In this document: positions 4,159 to 20,585 of the stretch, in pieces
How the letters are laid out: every line of letters begins with the position of its first letter
Numbering within the stretch: position 1 is the first letter of the stretch
IMG/VR virus record: IMGVR_UViG_3300045988_149075
Coordinates: 1 to 29,489 of that record
Direction: 5' to 3' (one strand)
DNA length: 29,489 bases
Source: a virus
Program-made: the position numbers and the translations under genes
Notes under the pieces: generated by a model
Database searches by the model: none
What the model was told of the DNA's origin: nothing
What the model saw: the letters and a program-made list of their open reading frames with translations, nothing else

Positions 4159-4167
4159 ATTATATCA
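4159..4167 (-). promoter_or_regulatory. Extended -10 element TGATATAAT (minus strand), same class as the late promoter cassettes
   Basis: Complement of 4159..4167 reads TGATATAAT. Downstream, TACGGTCTAAGCCG partially resembles the conserved late leader motif. Confidence 0.4.
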
Positions 4168-4856: not shown

Positions 4857-5831
4857 TTATTTCTTAAACTTAAAAATACTTAGTAGAAAATCGATAATCT
4901 TCTCTAATAGGCTTTTATTCTTAGCAACATCTTGACTTAATTTAGCGATAGACCTCATCACGTCTTCGTTTGTAGGTTGTGGTGCTACAATCTCTGGCTT
5001 TTTGTCTGGTTCAGTCTTCACAGTAGGTGCAACTACTACAGGACGCCTCTCTGGTCGTGGCGTGCCTGCATCTCCATTCGCTAATTCACGCACTCGTTCC
5101 GCTAATACCCAAATTCCATCATCTGCCATTTTCAGTTGTAGATAGCGTTTGTTATTCTCGGTAGTTTCGTCTAATATCTCTGTACTACCAACAATTCGGA
5201 AGTAATCTCCTGTATTTATCTCTCCGTCCAGCAGATAGCCGTCTTTATCTGTCCTTACTGCTACAGAAACAGGTACACCGTTATCTTCCCAGTCGAACTC
5301 ATCAATTAGTCGGTTACATCTAATTTGTCGTAAGTCGAATACGGTTGCTACTTCATCTGCGTAATAAACTTCAGGAAGTGCTACACGCTTAGTTTCTTGA
5401 GGCTTACCTACATACCTGTAAAATGCATACGGTGGGCAACCTGACGCACTCCAGAGCCAGTCGTGATTGTCTATTACAATACCTGTCTGATAGCGACAGT
5501 TAATCACGTTATCTGCGTCAACAAACATTCCTGTATGACCCAACGCGCCGCCTGAATTGCCTCGAATGCCCCAGATGAAGATATCTCCGCGTTGTGTGTC
5601 TGCCTCGCCGTTTGCGTCTTCAGGCAGTCGTACCCAACCGTTCTTTTCTAGTGCGTCGAATAAGGTGTCAGTGTTGCCAATCCAATAGCTTGCAGGTAAA
5701 AGACCCGCCTCTTTTAGAGCGTGATATACAGAGCTTGAACAGTCGTATGAATTTGGACCATTACGATTTTCCATTGAATAAGAAACTCGACCTTTACGTG
5801 CGTAAAACCAAGCTAGTGCTTTTTCTATCAT
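4857..5831 (-). CDS. Endolysin: N-terminal CHAP peptidase domain plus C-terminal SH3b-like cell-wall-binding region
   Basis: Cys in NSYDCSSSVYHAL and His in ALGHTGMFV match the CHAP catalytic pair. C-terminal half is beta-rich and SH3-like, with a basic, amphipathic extreme C-terminus. Confidence 0.8.
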   Translation of the reverse strand: MIEKALAWFYARKGRVSYSMENRNGPNSYDCSSSVYHALKEAGLLPASYWIGNTDTLFDALEKNGWVRLPEDANGEADTQRGDIFIWGIRGNSGGALGHTGMFVDADNVINCRYQTGIVIDNHDWLWSASGCPPYAFYRYVGKPQETKRVALPEVYYADEVATVFDLRQIRCNRLIDEFDWEDNGVPVSVAVRTDKDGYLLDGEINTGDYFRIVGSTEILDETTENNKRYLQLKMADDGIWVLAERVRELANGDAGTPRPERRPVVVAPTVKTEPDKKPEIVAPQPTNEDVMRSIAKLSQDVAKNKSLLEKIIDFLLSIFKFKK

Positions 5832-5832
5832 A

Positions 5833-6210
5833 TTATTTCCTCCTTACTTGTGTTTGTTGAACTTCTTCTTGTAATTCCGTAACGGTTTTATTTTGCTGAA
5901 TTAAGTTATTAGTTGCATAAATCGCCAATCCCACAAGTGCGATTGCAAATAATTTCGCTAAATTGCTTGTTACCAGTTTCCAAAAGTTCATAACGCCTTC
6001 GATTTCAGTACGTTTTACATATTTTTCTTCTGATTCTTTTTCGTGTTCTGCGATGTATGTTTTTAATTGAGCCTGAGTAACGTTTGCTCGTGCGATATTC
6101 TCAATTCGCTCTAGCATGACAGTATGCTTGTCTACGCCATCCTTAATGTATTCGACCTTAGCTTGTAACGCGCCGAACTCTTTAGCTGATACTTCTGGTT
6201 GTTCGTTCAT
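5833..6210 (-). CDS. XhlA-like membrane protein (holin-associated / hemolysin XhlA family)
   Basis: 125 aa. N-terminal coiled-coil region followed by one TM helix (LAKLFAIALVGLAIYATNNL). Confidence 0.55.
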   Translation of the reverse strand: MNEQPEVSAKEFGALQAKVEYIKDGVDKHTVMLERIENIARANVTQAQLKTYIAEHEKESEEKYVKRTEIEGVMNFWKLVTSNLAKLFAIALVGLAIYATNNLIQQNKTVTELQEEVQQTQVRRK

Positions 6211-6295
6211 AAAAAACTGCGGTTATTCAAATTATTAGTTGAAATTACCGCAGTTTACCGTAAGCGTGACGTGATATGTTTATATTATAATATCA
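6211..6295 (-). promoter_or_regulatory. Late promoter cassette C: -10 TATAAT, conserved leader motif, terminator-like hairpin and U6 directly abutting the ATG
   Basis: Minus strand reads TGATATTATAAT, then TCACGTCACGCTTACGGTAAACTGCGGTAAT (complement of 6244..6274), then hairpin ACUGCGGUAAUUUCAA...UUUGAAUAACCGCAGU, then UUUUUU-AUG. Confidence 0.6.
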
Positions 6296-6343
6296 TTTCT
6301 CATAAACATCAAGGGTCAGCTTCATCTGTCGCACAGTATAGAT

Positions 6344-6709
6344 TTGACGACCATGCCTGTTGCTGGATTTATAGCAACTAAGACCAACAACGACGTTAAT
6401 GCTAAAAAACCGCTAAAAATGCAATGCGGTCGTGCAAGGGTTGTCATACCTACTGACGCAATTGAAGCTACTGTTGTGGTACAATTTCCAGAGCAGTTTA
6501 ATAGTGGTACAACGCCTGTTGTTACATGTACGTATAACGGCTACGGCAACGCTAGCGATCCGTGGACAGACGCACCAAATCCATCTTGGGCTGGTGCAGC
6601 AATTGGGGCAGTTAGCGTTACTAATTCAGGATTTACGGCAAGGTGTCGGCGTTTTGATGGGGCTATGCTAAGAGGTACGTATTATTTTAGCTGGATGGCT
6701 ATAGGCTAA
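6344..6709 (+). CDS. H-type lectin domain protein, encoded antisense to the tail operon
   Basis: 121 aa. C-terminal NSGFTARCRRFDG...YYFSWMAIG matches the H-type lectin signature (TxGF...W.A.G). Its stop codon abuts the stop of the convergent minus-strand gene. Confidence 0.55.
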   Translation: MTTMPVAGFIATKTNNDVNAKKPLKMQCGRARVVIPTDAIEATVVVQFPEQFNSGTTPVVTCTYNGYGNASDPWTDAPNPSWAGAAIGAVSVTNSGFTARCRRFDGAMLRGTYYFSWMAIG

Positions 6710-7636
6710 TTATTTCGTGTAGTATATCGTAACCGATAACAATCCGGCTGATCCAGTATTAAATCGCAACTGCCAGCCACCATTATAAAATGTTACCTTA
6801 AGCTGTGAGTTCTGTCCGCTTGGTGCATTCGGGTTGATATACTCAATTGGGTAGAAATCAGCACCAGCACGTATTCCACCCTCTGTTTTTATAATCGTCA
6901 GGGAGGATGTTTTAGGAAGACCGATATCAATAATCTGTTCTACATTACCTAGCGACCGTGTATTCACTTCAAAAGTCTGTCTGAAGATATTTTTCCCATT
7001 TAGCCATTTTTGACCCGTATCTTGTTCAGTCGTGCTGTATTTATTGCCTGGCATGGTCGTCAAATCTATACTGTGCGACGAAAGCTTGCCGTAATTGATA
7101 GCAATCATCTCATCTGTAATTGTAGTTGTGGAAGATTCGGTTGTAATATTAGCAATGACCGCAATAACAGCCTGCGAGCCAGTAGCGCCGTCTTGCGTCA
7201 CAGCCTGCCTAATCTGAGATTCAGTTGGTGCCACTGGTGTAGCAGAGGTAGAACCATAAACAACGATTAAACCGCACGATGACGGTGAACCTGTAGTATT
7301 AGTATCTGTAGAGTTTAGTGCGATATTGTCAGAATAAGCCACGACACTTGCAATGCGTTTATTAGAGCTTGGTGCAGTAATTCTAATAACTTGCTGACCG
7401 ACGATATCAAGTGCAATCAAAAAGCCACTCGGTAATTTACCTAGCACGACATCTGGGTTATCGGTTGTTCCCCCCACTAGAACATTCATGTCGGCTACAG
7501 TATTTCTAACAACTCCACGTCCCGAAAACAGCCCGTCAGAATGCTGCTGTGCCCACATGTTCGCTTCATACACACTACCCCGACCGTTCGGACGAGAACG
7601 TAATCTAACAATTTTTCCTGGATTGGTAAAAGCCAT
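6710..7636 (-). CDS. Putative receptor-binding protein / tail fibre
   Basis: 308 aa with a Ser/Thr-rich beta-rich body. Sits in the distal tail module and is preceded by its own late promoter cassette. Confidence 0.5.
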   Translation of the reverse strand: MAFTNPGKIVRLRSRPNGRGSVYEANMWAQQHSDGLFSGRGVVRNTVADMNVLVGGTTDNPDVVLGKLPSGFLIALDIVGQQVIRITAPSSNKRIASVVAYSDNIALNSTDTNTTGSPSSCGLIVVYGSTSATPVAPTESQIRQAVTQDGATGSQAVIAVIANITTESSTTTITDEMIAINYGKLSSHSIDLTTMPGNKYSTTEQDTGQKWLNGKNIFRQTFEVNTRSLGNVEQIIDIGLPKTSSLTIIKTEGGIRAGADFYPIEYINPNAPSGQNSQLKVTFYNGGWQLRFNTGSAGLLSVTIYYTK

Positions 7637-7712
7637 AATTCTCCCCTTAATTGAATTACCGCAGTTTACCGTAAGCGTGACGTGATTATTTATCTGTGGT
7701 TATTATATCATT
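7637..7712 (-). promoter_or_regulatory. Late promoter cassette D: extended -10 TGATATAAT, conserved leader motif, RBS AAGGGGAG
   Basis: Complement of 7702..7710 reads TGATATAAT. The conserved motif is the complement of 7656..7686. No hairpin in this copy. Confidence 0.6.
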
Positions 7713-7715
7713 ATT

Positions 7716-8108
7716 TTATACTTTAGTAAATTTCCCTCGCGTTGAGCCTGTAGCAATGACGCGAATATAGAAATCGACCTCCACAGCTGGCGCAACAATT
7801 CCAAGCATCACCGCCGCTTCGCCATCGGATTGAGGCAACTGGTAAAAAGTCATTTTGGGAAATTGTGTTGAAAAATCAGCGTTAGCTGACACCTGCGGAA
7901 ATAAATCTACAAACAGAGGACCGTCTTTTGGCTTAATATCTGGAATAAATTTAATCACCACGTCAATTATACTATTCCCGCCACCGCGAACATGAAATAC
8001 CTGTGAAACCTGCAGAATAAAGTCGACCAACGAAGCCGCGACCGGATATATAACTTTCCTGGCATTATTTTCATTTTCAAGTGCTCTAATCCTTGATTCT
8101 ACATTCAT
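7716..8108 (-). CDS. Small baseplate/tail protein, paralog 1 (N-terminal coiled coil)
   Basis: 130 aa. The N-terminus MNVESRIRALENENNARK resembles the N-termini of the two following ORFs. Confidence 0.45.
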   Translation of the reverse strand: MNVESRIRALENENNARKVIYPVAASLVDFILQVSQVFHVRGGGNSIIDVVIKFIPDIKPKDGPLFVDLFPQVSANADFSTQFPKMTFYQLPQSDGEAAVMLGIVAPAVEVDFYIRVIATGSTRGKFTKV

Positions 8109-8113
8109 ACCAC

Positions 8114-8509
8114 TTATGCTCCTATATTTTTCAACGTTAAATCACCATCAAGCATCGAATGAACAACAACATCATAAGTAGTAGGCTGCCACGGATCAAG
8201 CCCATATCGATAAATCACCCACTGGGCACCATGAGCATAATTTGTGCGCCTTACACGAGAAACCGAGCCTGAACTAGCCTTCAGCTCCAACTGAGCGATT
8301 GTAGGAATTCTTTTTTTAGTGGTAAATGTCACTAAAACCCTTTCGGTGCTATTAGAAGGAACGCTCCAATAACCGGATAGCGTATTTGGTATAGTCGTTA
8401 TTTTTGCACTGCGAGAATATAGTGGAATTTTAGTCGCCGCTTGATAAAAACCTTGCTTAAGAGCCTTCGATTCGCGCTCCAGCTTATCTAACCACTTTTC
8501 AAGATTCAT
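8114..8509 (-). CDS. Small baseplate/tail protein, paralog 2
   Basis: 131 aa. N-terminus MNLEKWLDKLERESKALKQ. Confidence 0.45.
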   Translation of the reverse strand: MNLEKWLDKLERESKALKQGFYQAATKIPLYSRSAKITTIPNTLSGYWSVPSNSTERVLVTFTTKKRIPTIAQLELKASSGSVSRVRRTNYAHGAQWVIYRYGLDPWQPTTYDVVVHSMLDGDLTLKNIGA

Positions 8510-8979
8510 TGAATTCTCCTCATCGACAAAGTCCCAGCGACAGGCGATATCGCCTGCACGATTAAATCACAGTGGGCACCATCGCGGTCTGGAATCCACC
8601 ACGCAGATGCATCTATACTTATCGCGAATTTAACATAATCTTCACCAATCTCTTTAACCTGTAACCACCAACCATATTCTTCATCGGCGTTTGGATCTCT
8701 ACCTGTCACACCTGGATATGTATGAGGATTTTGATCATGATCGTATGACAGCTGCACCAGAGGCGGTTTTTTGACTCCGTCAGTTCGACGAAAAATGATG
8801 TCCCACTCCGCCACGGCTGTTTTGTCCGGCGCCAGGTATTGACTAATAAAACCGCTCCAAACAGCGGTCGGTAAACTACCCTGAGTTAGCTGTCCATAAT
8901 TTAATGGTGCAGCAACTTTCTGAGCTCTCTGCTCACTCTCGATTGACATTAGTCGACGCGTAATATTATCATTGAACAT
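8506..8979 (-). CDS. Small baseplate/tail protein, paralog 3
   Basis: 157 aa. N-terminus ...RRLMSIESEQRAQK. Confidence 0.45.
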   Translation of the reverse strand: MFNDNITRRLMSIESEQRAQKVAAPLNYGQLTQGSLPTAVWSGFISQYLAPDKTAVAEWDIIFRRTDGVKKPPLVQLSYDHDQNPHTYPGVTGRDPNADEEYGWWLQVKEIGEDYVKFAISIDASAWWIPDRDGAHCDLIVQAISPVAGTLSMRRIQ

Positions 8980-10232
8980 TATTCAACCCTTTTCAGGCGT
9001 GGCGTCACAGTAGCAACACCTTGATTATCCCAACTCGTCTCCATCGCAATTATCCGCATCCAACCGCTGAAGTCGCTGCCATCATCGTTCTCTTCCTGAA
9101 AACGAAACTCATCGCCAAGCGCCAACCCGTTATTTTCGTTAGCCGAATCGCCCCAGACAATAGGGCGACCCACAAGCTTTATCTGCGGAACTAACGAATC
9201 AAAACTGCGCTGTGCTAAAGATTTTTGAGCATATTCTGCAACTGCCGCTTGAGATTTGAGGTTTGATTGCGTTTCATAAACTCGCCAGTAGCAGTTGTCT
9301 TGAACAGCCGCGTGATTGCTAGCACTGGCAAGCTCAGCCGTATCCTCACCGGCTTCAGGATTACCAACCTGTCCATTGCCAGCCACTAGTACATCACTAG
9401 CATAGTCAGCAGACTCTTCAACCGCATAACCACTCGCCCATAATTTATAGACTCCATCGCTCGGATATCTTATGATGATATTTTTACGGCTGCCACGAGG
9501 CTTAAGAATATCAATAATCTGCTCGTTATGATTGTCTGGGTTGACACGAAAAACCACGTCAAATTTTCCAGTTCCCGTTTCATTATTCATCGCATCGCAC
9601 AGCGCCTTACTAACCGTCTGAAAATCATTATATTCAACGGTCTTCAACCTAAGCTCATTCACAATGCCAAATTTCCACCTGATATTCTCGCCGGCTTTTT
9701 TCGCTCTGGTGATAAACTCGCTAATCAAGCTTTGAACAAAGATATGTCCAGGTGTATTTGAAAAGACACGGTGAGGTGACTTCGTGTTATTCTTATCACA
9801 CACCAAATCGCCGCTTAACCTTGCAAAATGTTCAAAGAACTTTAAGTCTAGTTGCTGATCAGATCCATAACCGCTGCGTGCTGGTCTAGTTGCCAAAAAT
9901 CCAGAAAAGCGAGGTAATCCGTCAACTAAAAATACCATGTGAGTTTTACCGACACGCAGTAAAGATTCCGGGTTGTCATCCAGTCGTATTTTTGCATGTT
10001 TTTTGAACTTGGACCAGCTAATGCTAAAAGTAAACTGATCAGCTGTCGCTGAATCTGACTCGCTTTTTAACGCCTCGCTCAGCGCTCGATTTTGAGCAAA
10101 CTTATTGAAGTCGCCAATTAGCGTATCGCCAATATACAGCAATAGCTCGTGTTTTTTATCTGAACTAGCCAATGACATTATTCCACTCCAACTCTGATGT
10201 TGTGGCTCCACCACTTTCCACATCAAATCCAA
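8979..10232 (-). CDS. Tail-associated (Tal / baseplate hub-like) protein
   Basis: 417 aa, immediately after the Dit-like gene in canonical siphovirus order. The true start is probably an internal Met, which would reduce the overlap with Dit. Confidence 0.5.
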   Translation of the reverse strand: MDLMWKVVEPQHQSWSGIMSLASSDKKHELLLYIGDTLIGDFNKFAQNRALSEALKSESDSATADQFTFSISWSKFKKHAKIRLDDNPESLLRVGKTHMVFLVDGLPRFSGFLATRPARSGYGSDQQLDLKFFEHFARLSGDLVCDKNNTKSPHRVFSNTPGHIFVQSLISEFITRAKKAGENIRWKFGIVNELRLKTVEYNDFQTVSKALCDAMNNETGTGKFDVVFRVNPDNHNEQIIDILKPRGSRKNIIIRYPSDGVYKLWASGYAVEESADYASDVLVAGNGQVGNPEAGEDTAELASASNHAAVQDNCYWRVYETQSNLKSQAAVAEYAQKSLAQRSFDSLVPQIKLVGRPIVWGDSANENNGLALGDEFRFQEENDDGSDFSGWMRIIAMETSWDNQGVATVTPRLKRVE

Positions 10233-11058
10233 TTAAATTATTTCCCGGAGCGATTAATAGCTGACCAATAACATTCCTCGAAACGATAGCATCGTTTAGT
10301 CGCGCTTCACCGGTCGAAAAGTCAACGACAAGCGTCTGAGTTGATGATATGCTGCCATGATAAGTTGCCGATGTGTCTGTCGTATTATTCTGAATTGATG
10401 GATTGACAGCAGGACCTCGCAGGACCCAGACAGGATAAACCTTAACGGTTGAAGAAACAAACACGCTGCTTAGCCCACCGCTTGCACCAGCCCAGACCTC
10501 GCCAACTGTATCAAATACTTGCCCTTTGCTGTCCCAAACCTCACCACCAGTTGCGGCTGAGACACGACCCAGCTTTACATTGTTCGAATACACCTCATGA
10601 CCGCTACCGTCTTCGGAATATTCGAACAAGACTGAGTTGCCCACTTTGAATTCGGTTGAAAATGTCGTATTGCCTTCATCTGCTGGCACAGGCAAATCTA
10701 AGCTGCTACTCCGCCAAGCCCCTTTAATAGCAAATAGCTGACCGTCTCGTCTTCCATAAACCAAGGTAAATGTATGATTGGCAGCAAAAAAGCTACTAAT
10801 CATACTGTATAGCCTCCAAAAACCACTCTCTTTAGGCAAGATCAACCCATTGATTGATTGGGTGTAGGTAGACAGTCTCTGACGAATCATTTCGCCGCCA
10901 TCTGTATCGGTGTAGTCTATGTCTGAAGTGTCGAGGTCTGGTCGTTGCAGTAAGCTATTGTCGGCGCTCAGCGTTATTTCAGGACCAGTAAGATCAAGAC
11001 GCTCACCGTCATCCCTCACTACTGCCACCAAGCTAAATTTACCACGTAAAGTTATCAT
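10165..11058 (-). CDS. Distal tail protein (Dit-like)
   Basis: 297 aa. Directly follows the tape measure gene with a 4-nt overlap. Beta-rich. Confidence 0.55.
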   Translation of the reverse strand: MITLRGKFSLVAVVRDDGERLDLTGPEITLSADNSLLQRPDLDTSDIDYTDTDGGEMIRQRLSTYTQSINGLILPKESGFWRLYSMISSFFAANHTFTLVYGRRDGQLFAIKGAWRSSSLDLPVPADEGNTTFSTEFKVGNSVLFEYSEDGSGHEVYSNNVKLGRVSAATGGEVWDSKGQVFDTVGEVWAGASGGLSSVFVSSTVKVYPVWVLRGPAVNPSIQNNTTDTSATYHGSISSTQTLVVDFSTGEARLNDAIVSRNVIGQLLIAPGNNLIGFDVESGGATTSELEWNNVIG

Positions 11059-13412
11059 CCCATCACCCTCCCTTTTCGCAAGGCGATTATTTTACTAATT
11101 TCATCAGCAAGCTCTTTTGGATCACGATTATAACCGTTGATATTAATAGTCTGATACAACGTATTGCCAGCGCTGCCAGTCGTGTTTATGTCATTCAGCT
11201 TGTCGTAGCCAATCTTACGTGCAGATGACGCCTTAATGACATACTCGCCGTTTGAGAGTAGCATTGGAATTGAATCGCTAGTTGGACCACCAGGACCGAA
11301 TACTGGACCACCCTTAGCGCGCTTACCCAACTTAAAGCCGGATAAATTGACTGGGTTAGCTTTCACACCAACCGCTTTTAGGGCGTTGCCGATACCAGGA
11401 ATATTGATGATATTATTAATCACTTTATTCAGCGAATCTTGCAGCAAGTCAATCATGCCGTCTAACAAGCCAGCAGTAAAGTTGCGTGTGATTCCGTAGC
11501 CAGTACCGTACCAGTCTTGCCCTCCAACAGAACTGATCAAGTTAGCGATAGAGTTGATGATTTTGGATATTCCATTCGATATAGAATCCACCACGCGTGA
11601 TATAGCATTACCGGCGCTCTCAATTACGCCGCCGATTGAGTTGAACACGTCAGTCAGACCGCCGGCTACTGCATTTGTAAGCGGGATAACAGCTTCATTT
11701 GTCAACCTGATTATAGTGGTAGTAACCGCAGACAGCACGACCAAAAACGTGCCTACTAAAAACGCTGCCAGCGGGATTACTACCATATTCAAAAAATCTC
11801 TTAGCCCTGGCGATACGATACCAAGCGCACCGCCGATTAGCAGGATTGCGGCTGCCACACCGGCAGCAGCTGCAGTGAATGACAGTACACCCACCAGCAC
11901 ATCCGGTGATGCCAAAGCCTTAAAGAATCCAGCAACAGTCTCGCCTGCACCCTTGAAGAACTCTTTTACCGGCTGCCAAGCACTCTGTATGGCACCACCA
12001 GCCAAAGTCCCCATCTCCTTAAAAAAGTTAGCCATGCTCTTACCAAAAGTAAACTCTCTCGGCGCTTTCTTGACTGCGGATGATAACTTATCCACGCCGC
12101 CTGCTGCCGTATCAGCCGACGTCCCGACTGCGCTGCCAGCGCCCTCCATTGTTTTCGTCACAGCATCAACCGAACCTTTAGCAGCCTTCAAATCTTTGAA
12201 TTTACCTATCAACGTCTGAGCGCCGCCGATGACGCCAGTAAAAATACCCTTGCCTAGCTTTGCCCACGGCTTTAGCGTATCAAGCGCAGAACGCGCACCG
12301 CCTGTAGCTATCTGCAAAGCCTTGAATCCAACAGCTAACTTTACAATATTAGCGATTAGCTCTGGATTATTTTTAGCAAAGTCAAATAGCTTGCGAATAG
12401 TATCCACAGCGTCTTTTAATCCCTGAGCCAATTCTGGCGATTGTTTTTTAATCTCCTCAAAAACAGTCTTCAGCATGCTTTTTATGACTGGTGCCAAATT
12501 CTGTAAGAATTGTTTTGCGCTGGCTAGAAATATATTGAACGACTCTTCAAAATTACCGTTTGGATCAGCCAGTGATGTTAGCATATTATCAAATGCAGCT
12601 TTAGCAGCATTAAAACTACCGCTAATTGTCGATGACGCCTCCTTAGCTGAGGTGCCAGTAATATCAAGCTTAGTTTGAATACTATGTATAGCCTCGATAA
12701 CCTTATCAAACGGAATACTGCTGACGTTTTTAGCTGTCGCCTTAAACGTCTTACCCATCACACCACTATCGTTGATAAGGCGTGCCATCTCGCTTGCAGT
12801 ACCACCGTAGCCAAGCTTCAAGTTGTCGAGCATGGTATAGTTGTTCTTTGCAAATCCCTGATATGCGTACTGAATTGATTCCATCGACGTACCCATTTTA
12901 TTTGCATTGTCAGCCATGTCAGTGATAGCCATGTCTGCTATCTTCGTGGCTTTAGCGGTGTCACCTTTTAATCCCTGTAACAATGACGCAGAAAAACTCG
13001 TAACAGTATCCATATACTGATTAGCTGATAACTGAGCTGTTTTGTATGCATTCTTGGCGTATTGGACCACCTCACCCGAATTCTTCTTGAAGAGTGTTTC
13101 CACACCACCAACAAGCTGCTCATACTCAGCGAACTGCTTAACAGCATATGTAGCAATACCTCCCAGCCCGACCATCGCGCCAGCTGCCAGTGACTTAAAT
13201 TTAGAGAACGCTTCATCGGACCGTTTGCCAAACTCTGAAAACGCCTCACCAAAAGCCGCTTTAGATGACGCTAAAAAACTGCTCTTAAATTTAGAGCCAA
13301 AGTTATTACTGGCACCATCACCAGCGTCACCAAGTGCTTTCTTGATGTCGTTAGAAACCCCTTTGAGAGAGGGCTTTATCTGAATCCATGCTGTACCGAT
13401 TGAAGTTGCCAT
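11055..13412 (-). CDS. Tape measure protein
   Basis: 785 aa. Ala/Gly/Lys-rich helical sequence with a hydrophobic TM-like central block. Positioned after the G/GT chaperones. Confidence 0.85.
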   Translation of the reverse strand: MATSIGTAWIQIKPSLKGVSNDIKKALGDAGDGASNNFGSKFKSSFLASSKAAFGEAFSEFGKRSDEAFSKFKSLAAGAMVGLGGIATYAVKQFAEYEQLVGGVETLFKKNSGEVVQYAKNAYKTAQLSANQYMDTVTSFSASLLQGLKGDTAKATKIADMAITDMADNANKMGTSMESIQYAYQGFAKNNYTMLDNLKLGYGGTASEMARLINDSGVMGKTFKATAKNVSSIPFDKVIEAIHSIQTKLDITGTSAKEASSTISGSFNAAKAAFDNMLTSLADPNGNFEESFNIFLASAKQFLQNLAPVIKSMLKTVFEEIKKQSPELAQGLKDAVDTIRKLFDFAKNNPELIANIVKLAVGFKALQIATGGARSALDTLKPWAKLGKGIFTGVIGGAQTLIGKFKDLKAAKGSVDAVTKTMEGAGSAVGTSADTAAGGVDKLSSAVKKAPREFTFGKSMANFFKEMGTLAGGAIQSAWQPVKEFFKGAGETVAGFFKALASPDVLVGVLSFTAAAAGVAAAILLIGGALGIVSPGLRDFLNMVVIPLAAFLVGTFLVVLSAVTTTIIRLTNEAVIPLTNAVAGGLTDVFNSIGGVIESAGNAISRVVDSISNGISKIINSIANLISSVGGQDWYGTGYGITRNFTAGLLDGMIDLLQDSLNKVINNIINIPGIGNALKAVGVKANPVNLSGFKLGKRAKGGPVFGPGGPTSDSIPMLLSNGEYVIKASSARKIGYDKLNDINTTGSAGNTLYQTININGYNRDPKELADEISKIIALRKGRVMG

Positions 13413-13485
13413 AAAAAATGCGAATAAATAGTTTATTTATCCGCATTTGCCGCAAGCGTGGCGTTGTAATGATTATATTATATCA
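13408..13485 (-). promoter_or_regulatory. Late promoter cassette A (78-bp exact repeat of 19029..19106): extended -10 TGATATAAT, conserved leader, hairpin and U6 abutting the tape measure ATG
   Basis: Minus strand reads TGATATAAT, then CAACGCCACGCTTGCGGCAAATGCGG, then hairpin GCGGAUAAAUA-AAC-UAUUUAUUCGC (complement of 13420..13444), then AUUUUUU-AUG. Confidence 0.65.
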
Positions 13486-13767
13486 TATGCTAAGGTTTTC
13501 GACAAAAGACCCCAGCCAACCTGGCTTAGTCTTCAACGCGCCAGCAGTCCGCTTGTCAGCAGCCTTAATCATCACTCGTTGACGAAATGCCGTCGGCTCT
13601 GTCATAAGCTCAAAGTTGCCCTCAAAACCAAACTCCACTACAAATTGCGCTCTCACTGTATCCAGAATACGATTCATGTTCTGCATCTGGATCTGCGCTA
13701 TGCCTGGATTATTGCGAAGTATGTCCGCGCCGCCAGATTTATCAAGAATAAAATCTACATTTGACAT
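13483..13767 (-). CDS. Hypothetical protein, divergent partner of the nuclease gene
   Basis: 94-aa ORF. Its TGA stop is the TG-A of the extended -10 of cassette A. Confidence 0.45.
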   Translation of the reverse strand: MSNVDFILDKSGGADILRNNPGIAQIQMQNMNRILDTVRAQFVVEFGFEGNFELMTEPTAFRQRVMIKAADKRTAGALKTKPGWLGSFVENLSI

Positions 13768-13796
13768 ATCTACATAATATCACATAGTATATTATT

Positions 13797-13825
13797 TTGC
13801 ATTTTGAGTATACTATTGTTACAAT
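13797..13825 (+). promoter_or_regulatory. Sigma-70-type promoter TTGCAT-17-TACAAT (plus strand) inside the palindrome TTGCATTT...AAATGCAA
   Basis: -35 at 13797..13802, -10 at 13820..13825. The inverted repeat TTGCATTT (13797..13804) / AAATGCAA (13826..13833) spans the promoter. Confidence 0.6.
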
Positions 13826-13856
13826 AAATGCAAGTTTTAAGATAAAAGAGGATATT

Positions 13857-14513
13857 ATGTCTACAGAGTTTCAAGAGAAAGCTTGTGAAAAAGCATTACG
13901 CGAATATCGCAAAAAATACTTAACAAAAAAGGAAAACCTCAATGCTGATGAATCGACAGCGCGATTGATGGTCAATAGTTTACTCAGCACTGTGCTTGGA
14001 TACACGTTAATTGACGAGATAAAGACTGAGCATATGATACGCGGTACCTACGTTGATTATGTCGTACAATTAAACAAGAAGATTCATTTTATTGTTGAAG
14101 CCAAAGCAACTTCTATCGATCTAAATGAACGACACTTAAAACAAGCGGTTGACTATGCCTCAAACGAAGGCGTTGACTGGGTCATTCTGACAAATGGTCG
14201 CTGTATTGAGTTGCACCGTGTCATTTTTGAGAAGCCGATTCGCTCGCAGCGTATCTTCGCATATGACCTGACAAATCTGTCAACAATCCGCACTGCTGCT
14301 AAGCACCTAGTCAACCTTACTAAGAAATCTGTATTAAAAGGCGATTTGGACAAGTACTGGAAGCGATTTGATGCATTGACCGAAGACAACATGAGAAAAG
14401 CTATCAAGTCACCTGATGTCGTTCGCAGTTTGCGCTTGTTTATTAAGAAAAAGTCAACAATCAACTTCACCGACGCTGAAATTGCTAAGGCTCTTGATAA
14501 ACTGATCAGCTAG
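13857..14513 (+). CDS. PD-(D/E)xK nuclease-fold protein resembling the N-terminal domain of type I restriction HsdR (HSDR_N-like)
   Basis: Start taken at the internal ATG at 13857, which has RBS AAAGAGGA; the track ORF begins with TTG at 13797. Motif VDYVVQLNKKIHFIVEAKA fits D...E-x-K. The stop codon overlaps the GT stop as CTAG. Confidence 0.6.
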   Translation: MSTEFQEKACEKALREYRKKYLTKKENLNADESTARLMVNSLLSTVLGYTLIDEIKTEHMIRGTYVDYVVQLNKKIHFIVEAKATSIDLNERHLKQAVDYASNEGVDWVILTNGRCIELHRVIFEKPIRSQRIFAYDLTNLSTIRTAAKHLVNLTKKSVLKGDLDKYWKRFDALTEDNMRKAIKSPDVVRSLRLFIKKKSTINFTDAEIAKALDKLIS

Positions 14514-14971
14514 TCCTGATATTGCGCGTTCGGGTTCAGATGTTGCCATAAATCTTTTAAGTCATCCTGCTCTTCCGCTTGCTGTTTCTTACGATCTTTA
14601 TCAAGCTGTTTGCGCATTTCAGCAACATACTCTGGCTCAAACTTCTTCATAGCTTTAGCAGGCTTAGCAGTTTTGCGTTTATTCATATTATAAGTCAGTG
14701 TTGTGAGTATATTCAGCTCTTGTAGTATTTGGCTCAACGTTTCGTCGCGCCATGTCCAGCTAGCTGATGGCACTAGCTTGCGGAAAATCCTGCTTTCTAC
14801 TGGCAAATTCTCAAATAGCCTAGCATAGCGTAAGAAACCGCTTCGACGTCCGTCGGTATCCGGGCAAGCTTCTAATAAGTTCAGATGGTAATACTGTTGG
14901 AAATCAGCTTCAACTAGACTAAATTCTTCCACGAACGCCGCTGCGCTCGATTGCCAGCTTTTGGGAAGCAT
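14510..14971 (-). CDS. Tail assembly chaperone, -1 frameshift extension (GT-like; expressed as a fusion with 14914..15231)
   Basis: Overlaps the upstream G-like ORF by 58 nt in the -1 frame. Slippery heptamer C_CCA_AAA lies in the overlap (complement of 14949..14955). Confidence 0.65.
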   Translation of the reverse strand: MLPKSWQSSAAAFVEEFSLVEADFQQYYHLNLLEACPDTDGRRSGFLRYARLFENLPVESRIFRKLVPSASWTWRDETLSQILQELNILTTLTYNMNKRKTAKPAKAMKKFEPEYVAEMRKQLDKDRKKQQAEEQDDLKDLWQHLNPNAQYQD

Positions 14972-15231
14972 TCGTCCACCTTCGCAGTAATCTCTAGTAG
15001 CGCTTTCTGCGAGAAGTAACCATATTCTTTCTCGATATAAACACGAATGTCATCATAAACCTTATCACCACCAATCAACGCCATGTACATAGTCACTAGC
15101 TCAGAGATATTGCCAGTTCGGTGCGCTTCAGATAAGTCACTAATGAAATCAAAGTCGTCCATTAGCTGCATATTGACATCAACGGTGTATCCATCCCAAA
15201 GTTCAATTGTCTTTTTTGGCTCACTCGCCAT
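14914..15231 (-). CDS. Tail assembly chaperone (G-like)
   Basis: 105-aa acidic protein between the major tail protein and the tape measure. RBS GGAGGG. Confidence 0.65.
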   Translation of the reverse strand: MASEPKKTIELWDGYTVDVNMQLMDDFDFISDLSEAHRTGNISELVTMYMALIGGDKVYDDIRVYIEKEYGYFSQKALLEITAKVDECFPKAGNRAQRRSWKNLV

Positions 15232-15270
15232 ATTATCCCTCCATAAGAATTACATGATATATATTATAAC

Positions 15271-15302
15271 AAAAAAACGACTATTTTGCAAGTCGTTTTT
15301 TT
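15271..15302. terminator. Bidirectional rho-independent terminator between the major tail protein and G
   Basis: AAAAAAACGACT-ATTTTGCA-AGTCGTTTTTTT: a 6-bp stem flanked by an A-tract and a T-tract. Confidence 0.65.
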
Positions 15303-15322
15303 GCGTGTGCTCTTCCCAATCT

Positions 15323-15904
15323 CTAGGATTTCTTAGAGTAATACTCCTTTACATACACCAATTTACCAGCGGCGTCCGCAAACTTATACGCAGTCAGAGA
15401 TACCGGCACAGTAATAGCATCTGAGTTGTTGAACGTCATGTCACCAGAGCGATCAGTAAACTGTGCGTCGCCTAGAATTTGACGGTGACGCCGGACCCCA
15501 CCACTGTTAGTCTCGATAGTCTCGCAGACAAACACACCGTGAGGTAAGATTTCACCAGTGTCATCAATGGTGATTGCGCCATCGGTTTCAATCTTGACAT
15601 TACCTTTACCATAACGGAACTGCAAGACTGATACACGCGATGACTCTAGCAGGTTAAACGTAAAGTTACGTCCGTAGCTTGTCTGGTTGCGGGCGACAGT
15701 CTCAGGACCCCAAGCCTTAATGTCATCACCCTCTTCTGCCGTTGTTGAAGTCAAACCATCTTCAGTCACATAACCCAGATTCACAAATTCGCTTGCGAGT
15801 GGTGTGGTGGCGTCAGTTGGTAGCGTTGTACCCAGAGGCGCCCAATATAGAGCGCCTTTCGGGTTAGGCAGACCAATCGCAATATTGCTCTTGTCGTTGC
15901 CCAT
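15323..15904 (-). CDS. Major tail protein
   Basis: 193 aa. N-terminal region IAIGLPNPKGALYWAPLGTTLPTD is typical of siphovirus major tail proteins. Sits immediately before the G/GT chaperones. Confidence 0.7.
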   Translation of the reverse strand: MGNDKSNIAIGLPNPKGALYWAPLGTTLPTDATTPLASEFVNLGYVTEDGLTSTTAEEGDDIKAWGPETVARNQTSYGRNFTFNLLESSRVSVLQFRYGKGNVKIETDGAITIDDTGEILPHGVFVCETIETNSGGVRRHRQILGDAQFTDRSGDMTFNNSDAITVPVSLTAYKFADAAGKLVYVKEYYSKKS

Positions 15905-15905
15905 G

Positions 15906-16796
15906 TTACGCCGCCTTTACAACAGCAAACGCCTTAGTGTCCAAAATCTGGAAGCCGAACGGCAACTCCATGCGGATACCAATTTGGTTGTGTCCAGCCA
16001 AGTCTTTGCCTGTATTATCAAAGTCACCAGCTGTGTGAACGCGCCATTCAGCTACTCCAGCGAAGCCGAGAAGCAATTGACTCCAGTCACCAAGCACCAG
16101 CTTAGTTTTCTTGTCACGCGCAACTTCTGGTGATGTTGCAGCAGGTTTTCCAGCCAACATATTACCGCTCAAGCCGAATACACCCAACTCTGGATATTTC
16201 TTCTGGTTACCTTCAATAACTGTCGAGAGTAGCTTGGATGCATCACTTGAAATAGCCACACCGTTGATGTTCTGCTCCTCCAGCTCAGTTACAGCCGTAG
16301 CAAAGTCTGTATCAAGAGTTGTCGCAGTAGTACCGGTTGTCGGAACTAGAATGCTTGAGCCAGATTTAGTCATGTAGGTAGTTAGCTCAGTGTCAACTGT
16401 GCCAGTAGATGGATTCATACCATGTAGCACGATAGTATCCAAATCTAACCCCAACGACTTTGTTAGCCAGTTGTCAACCAAGCGGCTAATAAAGTCAGCC
16501 TGTTTTGCTTCTGTCCAGCGCATAAACTCTTCAGTAACGCGCTGCGAATAGACCAACTTCGCTGTCGTGAACGGCTTAGATACTACCTTGCGTCCGTTGT
16601 CAGGCTTTGCACCGCCCTCGTGGACAAGTGCACCGCGAGCGCGACCTTCCATCACGAACGGCTTGTTTTCGCCAATGTTAATAGTCGGTGTTTCAGGAAC
16701 TAAAGACAATACAGCTCCCGAGAAAGTGCCGCCAGTTGAGAACATCTTATCAAGCGGCTCAGCAATATCAAGTGTGTGCAGATCAGTTACTGCCAT
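15906..16796 (-). CDS. Major capsid protein
   Basis: 296 aa, following the scaffold-like gene. Size and position are consistent with an HK97-fold capsid protein. Confidence 0.65.
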   Translation of the reverse strand: MAVTDLHTLDIAEPLDKMFSTGGTFSGAVLSLVPETPTINIGENKPFVMEGRARGALVHEGGAKPDNGRKVVSKPFTTAKLVYSQRVTEEFMRWTEAKQADFISRLVDNWLTKSLGLDLDTIVLHGMNPSTGTVDTELTTYMTKSGSSILVPTTGTTATTLDTDFATAVTELEEQNINGVAISSDASKLLSTVIEGNQKKYPELGVFGLSGNMLAGKPAATSPEVARDKKTKLVLGDWSQLLLGFAGVAEWRVHTAGDFDNTGKDLAGHNQIGIRMELPFGFQILDTKAFAVVKAA

Positions 16797-16829
16797 AATA
16801 TTACCCTCCTTGGATAATAGTTAGGTTAA

Positions 16830-17324
16830 TTAGATCGTAACCTTTACACCTGTACGCGTCTGAATCGCGCTAGCTTTACCTGGTTGCTGTCGGTTCGGTG
16901 CGGTTGCTCCGCCTCCAAACTTCTCTTTCAGGTTGTCAGCTTCTTTGCGCATATCTTCCTCGGTACCAGTACCAAGATATTTCTCAGTGCCAGGCTTGAA
17001 GCCATACTCAGCGGCAATGGTCTTCTGTAGAATTGTCGTCTCTAAATCTTTGTTCTTCGACGTCAAATCGTCAATCTGAGGTTGATATTTTTCCTTAGCG
17101 TCTTTCTCAGCCTTTTCAGTGATAGTGTTCGTAAGTTCGTCACGCACTGATTTTTCTACGTCTTCGCGAATCTTTGCTGATTCGTTCTTGACCCAGCGCT
17201 CGTGGCGTTCTTTGAACATATCGTCTGTGTTGACTTCTGTAAATTCGCCTGCGTCGTTTTTGGTGTAATATGTCACCCTTTTATTCCCTCCGTCAAAAGT
17301 ATACGTGTCCATATTATAATACAT
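16830..17324 (-). CDS. Scaffolding protein
   Basis: 164 aa. Charged, predicted helical/coiled-coil (KERHERWVKNESAKIREDVEKSVRDELTNTITEKAEKDAKEKY). Located between portal and capsid. Confidence 0.6.
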   Translation of the reverse strand: MYYNMDTYTFDGGNKRVTYYTKNDAGEFTEVNTDDMFKERHERWVKNESAKIREDVEKSVRDELTNTITEKAEKDAKEKYQPQIDDLTSKNKDLETTILQKTIAAEYGFKPGTEKYLGTGTEEDMRKEADNLKEKFGGGATAPNRQQPGKASAIQTRTGVKVTI

Positions 17325-17357
17325 ACTTTACAAAATCACAAGCCATAATTATAGTAT

Positions 17358-18617
17358 TTATTTAGTTTTTGAATTGTTCTGTAAATTATCAACGATACTC
17401 GTGATAACTTGATCAATTTCACTACTCGATAATCCTGCATTACGCCAAACCGACCGCTGCATCACGATACCCGGTGCTACCTGCGCCACCTTATTCAAGC
17501 CGTCGCCAAATTTGCTGATATCAGACCGATAAATCGGCAACCATACCGGTAAAACAGCGTCAAGCTTCTGTCGTAAATTATCGTCTATTTTCGTCACGTT
17601 ATTCTTGTGCATCCACAACGTCATTGCGAAGTGCTTCAGCTGATTACCGATTTCTTTCTGCCACTCAATGATCGCTTCGCGCAGGTCATCGCCGACAATC
17701 TCCAGCGATTCAGGCGACTGCGGCGCGTTGCTTGACAGCCCCAAATTATTCAACGACAGCTTCGTATCAGCACAAAAATTACGCGCCGACATCAAAAGCG
17801 AATCGTTAAATGGTGCCATAGCATGCTGCGCAAACTGCGCCACTTGCGGTATCTGACCGTTCTCGTTCGACGTAATTTTTAGGATATCGCCTGTCTGAGA
17901 CTTAATAACGTCAACGTCTGTCTCATTATCGACACCTAGCAGAATATCAACTTTAGTGTTGTAGTGGTACGCTGCAACAATAGCCTGTCGAACTGTACGG
18001 CTAGCGTCAATTAATGCATCGCGAGATGACCGGACCAGCACCGTCCTACCAAACGGCTGGCGTGTCGTCGCCTTGTGCGTCAGCATTGTCATCAATGGGC
18101 GTCCGGTGCGATTATCGTATGAGTTCAGAGTCTCGTTCTCACACACTATAGTTTTGTCACTAAAGAACTGCATATAACTGTCAGGACCATCGATAACGCT
18201 CGGTGTGCTACTGCGGCGGAACACTGCCACGCCAGACTTCAGGTTTTGCGTATACCAATCGTACACGCCTGTCGCCTCCAGCGCAGTAAACGGCATCACC
18301 TTGTCGCCTGCCAGAGCCAAAAAGCCGATACCGCACACCAAAATATCTTCCTTAAGATTATCAAACGCCTCGCGCACCTTATATTCATCCATGATCTCAT
18401 TCAGTCCGATAGTGTCATTTTCAAACCTATCAAACCGCGTTTTGTTTGCGCGCATCTCAACAGCACGCCTACCCCAGCCGACGTGTTGCCTGGCGATTGA
18501 TCGTGCAATTTTACTCGTCTCGTAGTCGCTGTAGCTGAATGTACCCTCATAGAACGGATATTTACCAACCGATTTATTAAGCTGTGAATAAACCCATTTC
18601 CAGTTATCCAGTATCAT
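17358..18617 (-). CDS. Putative portal protein
   Basis: 419 aa, upstream of scaffold and capsid. Called on position and size only. Confidence 0.5.
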   Translation of the reverse strand: MILDNWKWVYSQLNKSVGKYPFYEGTFSYSDYETSKIARSIARQHVGWGRRAVEMRANKTRFDRFENDTIGLNEIMDEYKVREAFDNLKEDILVCGIGFLALAGDKVMPFTALEATGVYDWYTQNLKSGVAVFRRSSTPSVIDGPDSYMQFFSDKTIVCENETLNSYDNRTGRPLMTMLTHKATTRQPFGRTVLVRSSRDALIDASRTVRQAIVAAYHYNTKVDILLGVDNETDVDVIKSQTGDILKITSNENGQIPQVAQFAQHAMAPFNDSLLMSARNFCADTKLSLNNLGLSSNAPQSPESLEIVGDDLREAIIEWQKEIGNQLKHFAMTLWMHKNNVTKIDDNLRQKLDAVLPVWLPIYRSDISKFGDGLNKVAQVAPGIVMQRSVWRNAGLSSSEIDQVITSIVDNLQNNSKTK

Positions 18618-19033
18618 CCCCTAACTCCTCTCAATACACCAATCTGCGACTTACCAGATATCTTACTCAAACCCAGCATCTGTAGTTCGCTTTTCTTAAA
18701 ATATAAGTCGCTAGCAGGATTAGTAAATGTCATGCTTTCAGAGTACGGGCTTGCTGACTGTGACCATTGAGTAGCTGGTGGCGCGTCCGCAGGCGTCAGC
18801 ATGGCACGCTTCACGGCTGACAACACTACAAATCCTACCGAATCAGCAAATACTTCGTTAGTGTCTTTTTCGATGATTTCATCCAGATCAATATTGTTGT
18901 TTTTAGCAATCAGCCGCAACTGAGCAGATGCTGCATGAATAAGCGCCTCAGCCCGCCTTTCCTCGTCAATATCCAAGGCTCGCCATATTTCGGCTAATTT
19001 TTCTTTAGTAGTAAAGTCTTTGAGTTCTGCCAT
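18614..19033 (-). CDS. Putative head-tail connector (gp6-like) protein
   Basis: 139 aa. The N-terminus MAELKDFTTKEKLAEIWRALDIDEERRAEALIHAAS resembles gp6-like connector N-termini. Preceded by late promoter cassette B. Confidence 0.4.
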   Translation of the reverse strand: MAELKDFTTKEKLAEIWRALDIDEERRAEALIHAASAQLRLIAKNNNIDLDEIIEKDTNEVFADSVGFVVLSAVKRAMLTPADAPPATQWSQSASPYSESMTFTNPASDLYFKKSELQMLGLSKISGKSQIGVLRGVRG

Positions 19034-19106
19034 AAAAAATGCGAATAAATAGTTTATTTATCCGCATTTGCCGCAAGCGTGGCGTTGTAATGATTATATT
19101 ATATCA
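19029..19106 (-). promoter_or_regulatory. Late promoter cassette B (exact 78-bp repeat of 13408..13485)
   Basis: Identical sequence including the TGATATAAT, the leader hairpin and the U-tract abutting the ATG. Printed coordinates may be off by one here. Confidence 0.65.
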
Positions 19107-19304
19107 CTTTTTCTTGCTTTTGCCAGCATCTTCAGTTTCGACTTCAGTATCAGATTCAGTATCAGATTCAATTTCGGAGTCTTTATCATCGGAAGCCTCT
19201 ACGGACTCTCCCTCTGGATTCACTACTTCCCAAGCAGATTCAGCAATAATAGTGCCATCCATCACTTCAATTGTTTCGCCAGATTCTTTGTTACGAATAA
19301 TCAT
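19104..19304 (-). CDS. Small highly acidic protein with ESDTESDTEVETED repeats
   Basis: 66 aa. The DNA carries a tandem TCAGTATCAGAT repeat. Its TGA stop is the TG-A of the extended -10 of cassette B. Confidence 0.5.
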   Translation of the reverse strand: MIIRNKESGETIEVMDGTIIAESAWEVVNPEGESVEASDDKDSEIESDTESDTEVETEDAGKSKKK

Positions 19305-20425: not shown

Positions 20426-20585
20426 ATTATACCATCATCTACCCCTTAAATCAATCACCCACGCACCCGCCAGAAAAACTCGTTTTTTTTCTCGCGTGAA
20501 AATAGCCCCACTCACCGCGCTTGGCGCCTCTGGGACCGGGATATACACCCTCCCCGCCACCATAAAATTATACTATGTCAATATT

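Follow-up and report, generated by a model that had tools for sequence, protein, structure and literature searches.

Four copies of a regulatory cassette, each made up of a TGnTATAAT-type promoter and a leader motif of about 25 nucleotides (nt), stand at the heads of virion and lysis transcription units in the IMG/VR virus record IMGVR_UViG_3300045988_149075, a phage sequence of 29,489 nt that was analyzed over its full length and is called the window here. All four are found on the minus strand at the positions given by a first-pass annotation made from the letters alone, and the conserved element lies, as described there, in what would be the initial transcribed region. We read the cassette, with moderate confidence, as a cis-acting leader RNA switch, operating through local attenuation or translational unmasking, behind a promoter of the host's extended -10 type. 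This reading follows from a pattern known from riboswitches and protein-dependent attenuators, in which a near-invariant fold shares nucleotides with a terminator or with a helix that masks the start site.

The cassettes in the window and in related phages

A covariance model of the motif, built from the family, matches the window at four places and at no other (42-49 bits, E values from 1e-8 to 2e-10), and the chance expectation for the 21-mer motif pattern is 0.00. Cassettes A and B, which precede the head-tail adaptor and tape measure genes, are an exact repeat, as had been noted, with a length of 79 nt instead of 78 (13407-13485 = 19028-19106); in both, the TGA of the -10 sequence TGATATAAT is also the stop codon of the upstream open reading frame (ORF), again in agreement with the earlier description. 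An exact 33-mer is common to cassettes D and C (6243-6275 and 7654-7686). Cassette C heads a 308-amino-acid (aa) ORF resembling a receptor-binding protein (RBP), and cassette D heads the lysis block, whose first gene encodes a 125-aa coiled-coil and transmembrane protein and whose next gene encodes the endolysin. The first-pass annotation correctly recognized that one copy has a normal Shine-Dalgarno (SD) sequence and three have a hairpin, but its labels, read in listing order, were swapped: the SD copy (AAGGGGAG) is the one at 7637-7712 before the RBP-like gene, and the lysis-block copy at 6211-6295 carries the hairpin.

The promoter part is not peculiar to these units. TGnTATAAT occurs nine times in the window, always on the minus (coding) strand, against 1.9 occurrences expected, and is a general promoter type of the phage, real but not cassette specific. 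Five further copies lack the motif (4159, 15263, 19334, 20426, and 23766), and a sixth (21602) was assigned to another promoter family. The cassette promoters have the form of extended -10 promoters, for which a -35 element would be dispensable. They had been described as having no -35, and this was too strict, as each cassette has a hexamer agreeing at 4 of 6 positions at a distance of 17 nt; family-wide, such matches barely exceed random ones (mean of 3.05 versus 2.57 of 6).

The promoter-plus-motif unit recurs in dozens of related IMG/VR contigs. An exact-pattern scan found the strict motif in 86 IMG/VR stretches, and a relaxed scan and model search added contigs of non-oral and environmental origin. 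Across these relatives, whose proteins are about 30-69% identical to those of the window, the unit reads TRTGnTAYAAT, 10-18 nt, A-CGS-CACGCUU-S'CG-G, 4-9 mostly A-rich nt, and KGCGG, and one cassette type has the TG three bases further upstream. The motif is nearly invariant even between phages with proteins only 40-69% identical. The unit is always located 5' of a virion or lysis gene, namely those for the adaptor, the tape measure, the RBP-like protein, the lysis block, a gpG-like chaperone, a 78-aa head-module protein, and one more tail-region gene. What follows the motif is variable: in most relatives, hairpin and U-run are both absent and an ordinary SD, GAAAGG or GGAGG, follows at 10-25 nt, and the combination of hairpin, U-run, and SD-less AUG is limited to the window's oral clade and, with a different sequence, to the adaptor cassette of the L213 lineage. 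Since the motif is kept while the part after it varies, the core finding is the promoter with its leader motif, and the terminator-like hairpin is a lineage-specific output module.

Base pairing within the motif and toward the start site

Several signals are evidence that the conserved motif functions as RNA that folds, or at any rate in single-stranded form. The pairings in question are a stem S1, in which CGS would pair with S'CG around the loop CACGCUU, and a stem S2, in which the CGC of this loop would pair with the GCG of the KGCGG box across the A-rich linker. For S1, a scan that left the bases flanking CACGCUU free yielded 117 distinct cassette contexts and 48 promoter-less chance matches. 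The third S1 pair was C-G in 70 cassette contexts, U-A in 38, G-C in 6, and U-G in 3, with mismatches in 0/117, while the same position was pairable in only 26 of the 48 chance matches (Fisher p 2e-14). These variants coexist within genomes, as in the window (C-G and U-A), in L070 and L125 (C-G and G-C), and in L009, L013, and L191, where copy A has C-G and copy B has U-A. Such coexistence argues that complementarity has been selected, and not a base read by a DNA-binding protein. One of the three S1 pairs covaries strongly, and the other two are invariant.

In S2, only the central pair changes (G-C, U-A, G.U), with the other two invariant. The L213 lineage joins the loop CACUCUU to the box UGAGG, changing G-C into U-A, and L152, L279, and L280 (adaptor type) together with L278 (RBP type) join the loop CACGCCU to the box GGUGG, which yields a G.U plus a new C-G. 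The two coupled loop-box changes lend thin support to a putative minimal H-type pseudoknot, for which loop lengths of 2, 1-2, and 5-10 nt are geometrically plausible. In a hand-assembled alignment of 29 sequences, both helix cores are 100% paired, and the covariation score of 0.163 exceeds that of shuffled alignments (0.057; 0/500) as well as all slid controls.

Extensions of this fold were considered and set aside. Neither a lengthened S1 nor an additional, fourth pair in S2 is borne out: although invariant, the A and G at the flanks do not pair, and 21 of the 29 sequences leave U12-K26 open. The reading of GCGG...GCGG as a direct repeat forming tandem protein sites was rejected as well, because the leading base of the first GCGG covaries with the 5' side of S1. 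No Rfam family matched anywhere in the window at the gathering score, and the cassettes at E <= 10 gave only noise of 7-18 bits.

The sequence after the motif also takes part in pairing. In cassettes A, B, and D, as the first-pass annotation stated for three copies, a stable hairpin and U6 are followed directly by AUG without an SD. The A/B hairpin has a 15-bp stem and a 3-nt loop (-14.4 kcal/mol, z score of -4.5 versus shuffled sequences), and the D hairpin is built on a CUGCGG/CCGCAG base (-16.8 kcal/mol, z score of -6.5). With their stable G+C-core stems, short loops, and adjoining U-runs, all three look like intrinsic terminators. A generic terminator scan missed them because part of the U-run pairs with the upstream A-run. 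The genes that they precede, whose start codons are confirmed by the conserved N termini of homologues, are among the very few SD-less genes in the genome; their SD duplex energies are at least 0, against -6 to -12 kcal/mol for most genes, which indicates that the loss of the SD is specific to the hairpin copies. In all three, the UGCGG box of the motif is the G+C core of the hairpin's 5' arm, and the L213 adaptor cassette has a different 12-bp hairpin with U5, whose 5' arm makes use of GCGG, the S1 3' strand. Among 41 genome pairs of A and B, the 15-bp stem is unchanged, and this constancy indicates that the hairpin is under selection. Within genomes, the A and B copies are nearly identical (fully so at 9 of 41 related loci), and their differences cluster in the approximately 8 nt after the -10, the hairpin loop, and the length of the U-run, a pattern that suggests gene conversion between copies together with strong constraint on motif and stem.

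Elsewhere, the leader pairs with the start site. In cassette C, the predicted helix encloses the AUG and leaves the SD in a loop, and there is no U-tract. Environmental cassettes of the tape-measure and adaptor types have the helix GCCACGCUUGC/GCAAGCAUGGC, which is extended where the start codon is GUG; several lineages have U.G and G.U wobbles in this helix that would be mismatches on the other strand. Another cassette type has the leader-to-start-site helix CACGCUUCC/GGAGGCGUG, gpG-type cassettes have the S1 G-C variant, which creates CUUCC, complementary to the SD GGAGG, the type before the 78-aa gene pairs GGUCAU with AUGACC, and the L213 tape-measure cassette pairs GUCAUAGUG with CACUAUGGC. 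The duplex energy of the leaders with their own start sites averages -11.3 kcal/mol, compared with -7.3 for control start sites, and for most environmental cassettes the value is beyond the controls' 5th percentile. One conserved motif is consequently joined to different platforms, of the terminator type in the oral clade and, differently built, in L213, and of the SD/AUG-pairing type in the others.

The proposed leader switch and its competitors

In the leader switch proposed here, a host-type extended -10 promoter (TRTGnTATAAT) would be followed by the conserved leader RNA at the head of a virion or lysis transcription unit. The first 30 or so transcribed nt after a point at about +5 to +12 would fold into a tiny H-type pseudoknot, and the expression platform 3' of it would reuse nucleotides of the motif, either in a terminator-like hairpin with the GCGG box in its 5' arm, before U6 and an SD-less AUG (A, B, and D), or in a helix in which the SD and/or the start codon is paired to part of the motif (C and most relatives). 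Pseudoknot and platform would be mutually exclusive, so that polymerase would pass the U-run and the AUG would be accessible when the pseudoknot is held, and the RNA would end at the U-run or the start site would be buried when it is not. Because the fold is so small, an effector would be needed, and a protein, a small ligand, RNA polymerase, or the ribosome could hold it. That very divergent phages keep the motif invariant points to a partner that is itself conserved, and not to a phage protein that evolves fast. A more specific version, which we offer only tentatively and regard as doubtful, is that a new class of pseudoknot riboregulator or riboswitch, about 30 nt in size, has its sensor in the motif and gates virion and lysis genes in a phage lineage of Saccharibacteria (Patescibacteria). 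It would answer a signal that comes from the host and is conserved, be it a small molecule, RNA polymerase, the ribosome, or a host protein, instead of a coevolving phage protein, which would explain both the near-invariance at 40-60% protein identity and the independent wiring to terminators and start-masking helices.

It is important to consider what weighs against a switch of this kind. With 3 bp each, S1 and S2 alone cannot outcompete a hairpin of -14 to -17 kcal/mol thermodynamically. S2 rests on two coupled changes in few lineages, and when noncanonical bases were forced at the outer S1 pair and at pairs 1 and 3 of S2, the scans yielded chance matches or none, with zero cassettes; as these pairs never vary, they are uninformative for or against pairing. 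Predicted burial of the start site, at 0.64-0.67 versus 0.50 in control genes, is only moderate, and the samples are phylogenetically related. The start site, the termination, and the timing are all inferred from the sequence. Four or five other promoters in the virion region of this phage have no motif, and neither has the distant tape-measure homologue L180, which means that the element is not obligatory for late expression. Finally, no effector was identified by family scans or by comparing early regions.

The family scans (PHROGs, Pfam, and NCBIfam on all 49 ORFs) detected no Q, N, sigma, NusG-like, repressor, or RNA-binding domain, remote homologues being possible. The Cys-rich 98-aa ORF at 27752-28048, earlier named as a candidate regulator, is not supported in this role: it starts with TTG, lacks an SD, and matches no family, and its homologues are present only in close relatives and in none of the distant motif-bearing phages with an available early region. 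The early regions of those distant phages (L163 and L213-L215) share almost nothing with the window except a small KGG-type protein, which is the only early protein common to all of them. In the window, this small basic protein with a KGG motif is encoded at 26218-26478 on the minus strand (MSGTKAGGLKA...NPNFYAEIGRKGG), and its counterparts are at 1877-2149 in L213, 1264-1521 in L215, 1998-2144 in L163, and 6477-6623 in L214, with a Cys-rich tail in some copies; no relative was found in the PDB. The phylogenetic profile makes it a weak candidate for a trans-acting factor and is suggestive only.

The first-pass annotation had seen in the cassettes the lambda PR'-qut-tR' logic repeated at each late operon, and part of this comparison survives. 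Repeated late cassettes with a read-through-type module are present, and with a hairpin and U-tract fused to an SD-less AUG in three copies, read-through control was a reasonable inference. As in lambda, a constitutive-looking promoter precedes a conserved initial-transcribed element, with a terminator close behind and late genes beyond. The Q logic itself does not carry over: no Q-, N-, sigma-, or NusG-like protein was found among the 49 scanned ORFs, there are several cassettes per genome against one in lambda, and the signals are those of RNA base pairing and not of a DNA Q-binding element. A broader form of processive antitermination would have the leader serve as a qut/nut-like or put-like loading site, from which polymerase would resist adjacent and downstream terminators across the late operon. 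The place of the element directly after promoters heading late operons, the terminator-type hairpin and U6 next to it in three copies, and RNA-level signals compatible with a nut- or put-like RNA all speak for this, and the put-like RNA that had been named as an alternative pointed in the right direction, in that the base-pair signals show an element behaving as RNA. We nevertheless judge processive antitermination to be unlikely. The TAAACT proposed as a pause element is confined to copies C and D, lies in the variable linker, and is not conserved in alignments of 34 and 29 sequences; no conserved sigma-dependent pause element exists, and the spacing from the -10 is variable (10-18 nt); most relatives keep the motif without an adjacent terminator; where a terminator-like hairpin exists, its 5' arm overlaps the motif, the signature of a local either/or RNA switch; and a terminator-like hairpin with a fresh promoter at 15263-15291 subdivides the late region. 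Scarcely credible, in our estimate, is an ops-like mechanism, in which a hairpin of the nontemplate strand in a paused complex would recruit a host factor of the NusG/RfaH type that suppresses termination and brings ribosomes to SD-less genes. A short, near-invariant element in the leader with hairpin potential would suit it, as would the SD-less first genes of three cassettes (RfaH-controlled genes lack an SD) and an invariance suggestive of a conserved host partner; yet there is no similarity to ops in the right orientation, no NusG paralogue turned up in the phage, the pairings of S2 and of the leader with the start site extend farther than a transcription bubble can expose, and most cassettes carry normal SDs. 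Resemblances to ops and complementarity to 16S rRNA were also considered as candidates and discarded, being matches of 6-8 nt, within chance expectation.

The remaining explanations dispense with a switch or with RNA. Constitutive promoters could simply be followed by a structured 5' leader that tunes expression, as an RNase-protective 5' stem-loop or as a partial terminator or buried start that keeps low-copy proteins low. The hairpin copies do head genes for proteins needed in few copies (adaptor, tape measure, and lysis factor), other late-region promoters have no motif, no effector was found, and the pseudoknot is intrinsically weak. We still hold this to be rather unlikely, because stabilizing hairpins need no invariant 7-nt loop and GCGG box across 40-69% protein identity, because different platforms repeatedly reuse nucleotides of the motif in a way that suggests competing folds, and because a temperate phage must somehow silence its lysis cassette. 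The need to silence late promoters in lysogens is likewise what favors a double-stranded DNA operator of the stoperator kind, bound by a phage repressor or activator directly 3' of the promoter, and an asymmetric site repeated in a single orientation near promoters of an integrase-bearing phage would fit. Here, the base-pair evidence makes the explanation very unlikely: C-G, U-A, or G-C stands at the same symmetric position within single genomes, with U-G intermediates, and the coupled loop-box changes and the wobbles in start-site helices are sensible only on the sense strand. Furthermore, the spacing from the -10 varies by 8 nt, and the palindrome AGCTAA-N4-TTAGCT of a separate promoter family is a likelier repressor target. 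A reading of the motif as a sigma-54, extracytoplasmic function (ECF), or phage-sigma promoter was rejected on inspection, as the spacing does not fit and a full extended -10 always precedes the motif.

The phage, its other promoters, and related systems

The coordinates of the cassettes and of the recognizable genes are collected in Table 1. An exact 49-bp terminal repeat (1-49 = 29441-29489) indicates that the window holds the whole genome, about 29,440 bp long and either circular or assembled as a circle, and the phage is a small (approximately 29.4-kb) siphophage, called temperate because of its integrase. Every recognizable gene is on the minus strand, and the proteins of the early region have no assigned function in the PHROGs, Pfam, and NCBIfam scans. 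A megablast of 14.5 kb against the deposited phage collection gave zero nucleotide-level similarity. True genome matches to the motif are all in contigs of Candidatus Saccharibacteria or Nanosyncoccus metagenome-assembled genomes, one of them 60 kb long, and for this reason the host is most likely a member of the Saccharibacteria, which are uncultured bacteria of the mouth.

Table 1. Positions of the cassette elements and of the recognizable genes in the window
Feature	Positions	Strand	Remarks
Cassette A	19031-19106	minus	TGnTATAAT-type promoter plus ~25-nt motif
A, -35-like hexamer CTGGCA	19121-19126	minus	weak
A, putative extended -10 TGATATAAT	19098-19106	minus	TGA ends ORF 19104-19304
A, leader motif ACGCCACGCUUGCGG-CAAA-UGCGG	19062-19085	minus	42.4 bits
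A, S1 (CGC/GCG around 7-nt loop CACGCUU)	19071-19085	minus	
A, distal GCGG box	19062-19066	minus	within hairpin 5' arm
A, terminator-like hairpin and U6	19034-19069	minus	stem 19037-19069, U6 19034-19039
A, AUG without SD	19031-19033	minus	opens head-tail adaptor gene
Cassette B	13410-13485	minus	TGnTATAAT-type promoter plus ~25-nt motif
B, -35-like hexamer TTGTCG	13500-13505	minus	weak
B, putative extended -10 TGATATAAT	13477-13485	minus	TGA ends ORF 13483-13767
B, leader motif, same as in A	13441-13464	minus	exact 79-nt repeat and covariance model
B, terminator-like hairpin and U6	13413-13448	minus	hairpin 13416-13448, U6 13413-13418
B, AUG without SD	13410-13412	minus	opens tape measure gene
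Cassette C	7634-7710	minus	TGnTATAAT-type promoter plus ~25-nt motif
C, -35-like hexamer TTTACT	7725-7730	minus	weak
C, putative extended -10 TGATATAAT	7702-7710	minus	
C, leader motif ACGUCACGCUUACGG-UAAAC-UGCGG	7659-7683	minus	48.8 bits; third S1 pair is the U-A variant
C, predicted helix	7625-7670	minus	GGUAAACUGCGGUAAUUC (7653-7670) with GAAUUAUGGCUUUUACC (7625-7641); -15.6 kcal/mol, z -2.6
C, SD AAGGGGAG	7641-7648	minus	
C, AUG	7634-7636	minus	
Cassette D	6208-6295	minus	TGnTATAAT-type promoter plus ~25-nt motif
D, -35-like hexamer TTGATG	6307-6312	minus	weak
D, putative promoter TGATATTATAAT	6284-6295	minus	TATAAT at 6284-6289
D, leader motif, 25 nt identical to C	6248-6272	minus	48.8 bits
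D, terminator-like hairpin AAACUGCGG...CCGCAGUUU and U6	6211-6256	minus	hairpin 6214-6256, U6 6211-6216; distal box within 5' arm
D, AUG without SD	6208-6210	minus	opens lysis block
Integrase	192-1157	minus	
Endolysin	4857-5831	minus	
Dit	10165-11058	minus	
Tape measure	11055-13412	minus	
Major tail protein, major capsid protein, scaffold, portal	15323-18617	minus	
Head-tail adaptor	18614-19033	minus	
Large terminase	21693-23183	minus	
RusA and YopX	23783-24570	minus	

Among the promoters without the motif, the one at 4159 had been taken for a degenerate fifth copy of the cassette. An exact TGATATAAT is present there, but the covariance model finds no motif. The bases directly after this -10 (UUACGGU) resemble part of the cassette motif, and the sequence following TGATATAAT (approximately 4040-4167, minus strand) has a small hairpin ACGG-UCUAAG-CCGU, CUACUAC direct repeats, and a stem flanked by A6...U6; lying in a gene-free gap of about 230 nt, this stretch might specify a small RNA or serve as a terminator region. 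The minus-strand element at 15263-15291, 3' of the major tail protein gene, is a terminator-like hairpin (ACGACU...AGUCGU) with U7, whose loop holds the -35 TTGCAA of the following promoter TGTTATAAT; in several relatives, a full motif cassette occupies this position.

A second promoter family has five minus-strand copies (158-195, 2366-2433, 3286-3353, 3910-3977, and 21593-21660). In each, a spacer of 17 nt leads from a strong -35, TTGCAT or TTGACA, to (T/A)GCTATAAT, with TATACT in two copies, and a conserved AAAGAYAGT comes next. The family heads small genes near the integrase, one copy standing between the terminase and head genes, and the palindrome AGCTAA-N4-TTAGCT lies in the spacer of three copies, where it is likely a repressor operator. 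At 20416-20434 (minus strand), TGGTATAAT is separated by 9 nt from the ATG of the 78-aa head-module gene, whose N terminus MTEGQRDYLADLA agrees with homologues. At 13765-13790 (minus strand), TGATATTAT stands 6 nt before the ATG of ORF 13483-13767, an arrangement kept in L213 at about 10420-10451 (TGTCATAAT, 6 nt, ATG). These three starts probably belong to leaderless mRNAs.

The sole plausible plus-strand gene is a 121-aa ORF at 6344-6709, between the RBP-like gene and lysis cassette D, which is intact in 10 relatives at 81-100% aa identity and matches no family. It starts beside the -10 region of cassette D, which is AT-rich and nearly a palindrome, so that a divergent promoter is possible. 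The lysis block also encodes a 109-aa protein (4518-4847, minus strand) with a Pfam match to the hairpin domain of Acb2/Tad1 (PF24729) that passes the curated cutoff (E 5e-7); the protein may be an anti-CBASS/Thoeris nucleotide sponge. Where the small- and large-terminase genes overlap, an exact 29-nt direct repeat (23161-23189 and 23272-23300) falls in the Lys/Ala-rich C-terminal tail of a 193-aa ORF.

Among known systems, the cassette resembles terminator attenuators with ribonucleic antiterminator (RAT) sites and the preQ1-I riboswitch in logic, and lambda PR'-qut-tR' in placement, and is a member of none. With the RAT sites of BglG, SacY, and LicT and with lambda N/boxB, it shares a short stem-loop in the leader, in which the loop is conserved and the 3' part, or else a neighboring segment, also forms the 5' arm of a terminator; in those systems, there is no termination when the upstream structure is held. 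The cassette differs in its unrelated sequence, in a fold that is probably a pseudoknot, in being coupled to translational platforms as well, and in that no PRD/CAT-type or arginine-rich N-like protein was found. The preQ1-I mini-pseudoknot riboswitch (approximately 34 nt) has the same succession of hairpin, A-rich linker, and short 3' segment pairing into the loop, and the same logic of a conserved aptamer joined to a terminator or to a helix sequestering SD or AUG. In contrast, Rfam gave no such match here at E <= 10, the stems are shorter (3 + 3 bp), the ligand is only hypothetical, and multiple copies precede virion and lysis genes instead of metabolic genes. The T4 gene 32 leader pseudoknot and Mu Com-mom are likewise small structured elements in phage mRNA leaders that govern access to the start site, and in Mu a protein bound upstream opens the hairpin hiding the start codon. 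These are single-gene circuits with known proteins, whereas here one element occurs in three to four or more operons per genome and in very divergent phages, with no binding protein identified.

For a motif of unknown function that is repeated at gene starts within a phage family, the closest precedent in descriptive terms is the start-associated sequence (SAS), with its extended form (ESAS), of Cluster K mycobacteriophages (PMC3203893). It is a short asymmetric motif found in one orientation directly upstream of many start codons, it includes the SD and stands 3-8 bp from the start codon, and it is conserved across subclusters, sometimes with inverted repeats attached (PMC3203893). The motif described here differs in standing at the 5' end of the leader beside the promoter, in its base-pair covariation, and in its restriction to virion and lysis units.

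Gene regulation in Saccharibacteria, other Patescibacteria, and their phages is essentially unexplored, and the literature on Saccharibacteria phages, as far as it was examined, contains no promoter or leader analysis. The cassette offers a concrete, repeated regulatory unit in this group, comprising a promoter type, a probable start region, a putative conserved RNA fold, and two kinds of output module, and its leader has the appearance of an RNA element, not described before, that controls late genes. In metagenomes, this phage lineage can be recognized sensitively by the motif, and the promoter with its element of about 30 nt provides compact parts for genetics in organisms that are poor in tools. 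If the switch is real, a 29-kb temperate phage would time or restrain several late operons without a recognizable Q, N, or sigma factor, and a new RNA motif would be added to the catalogue.

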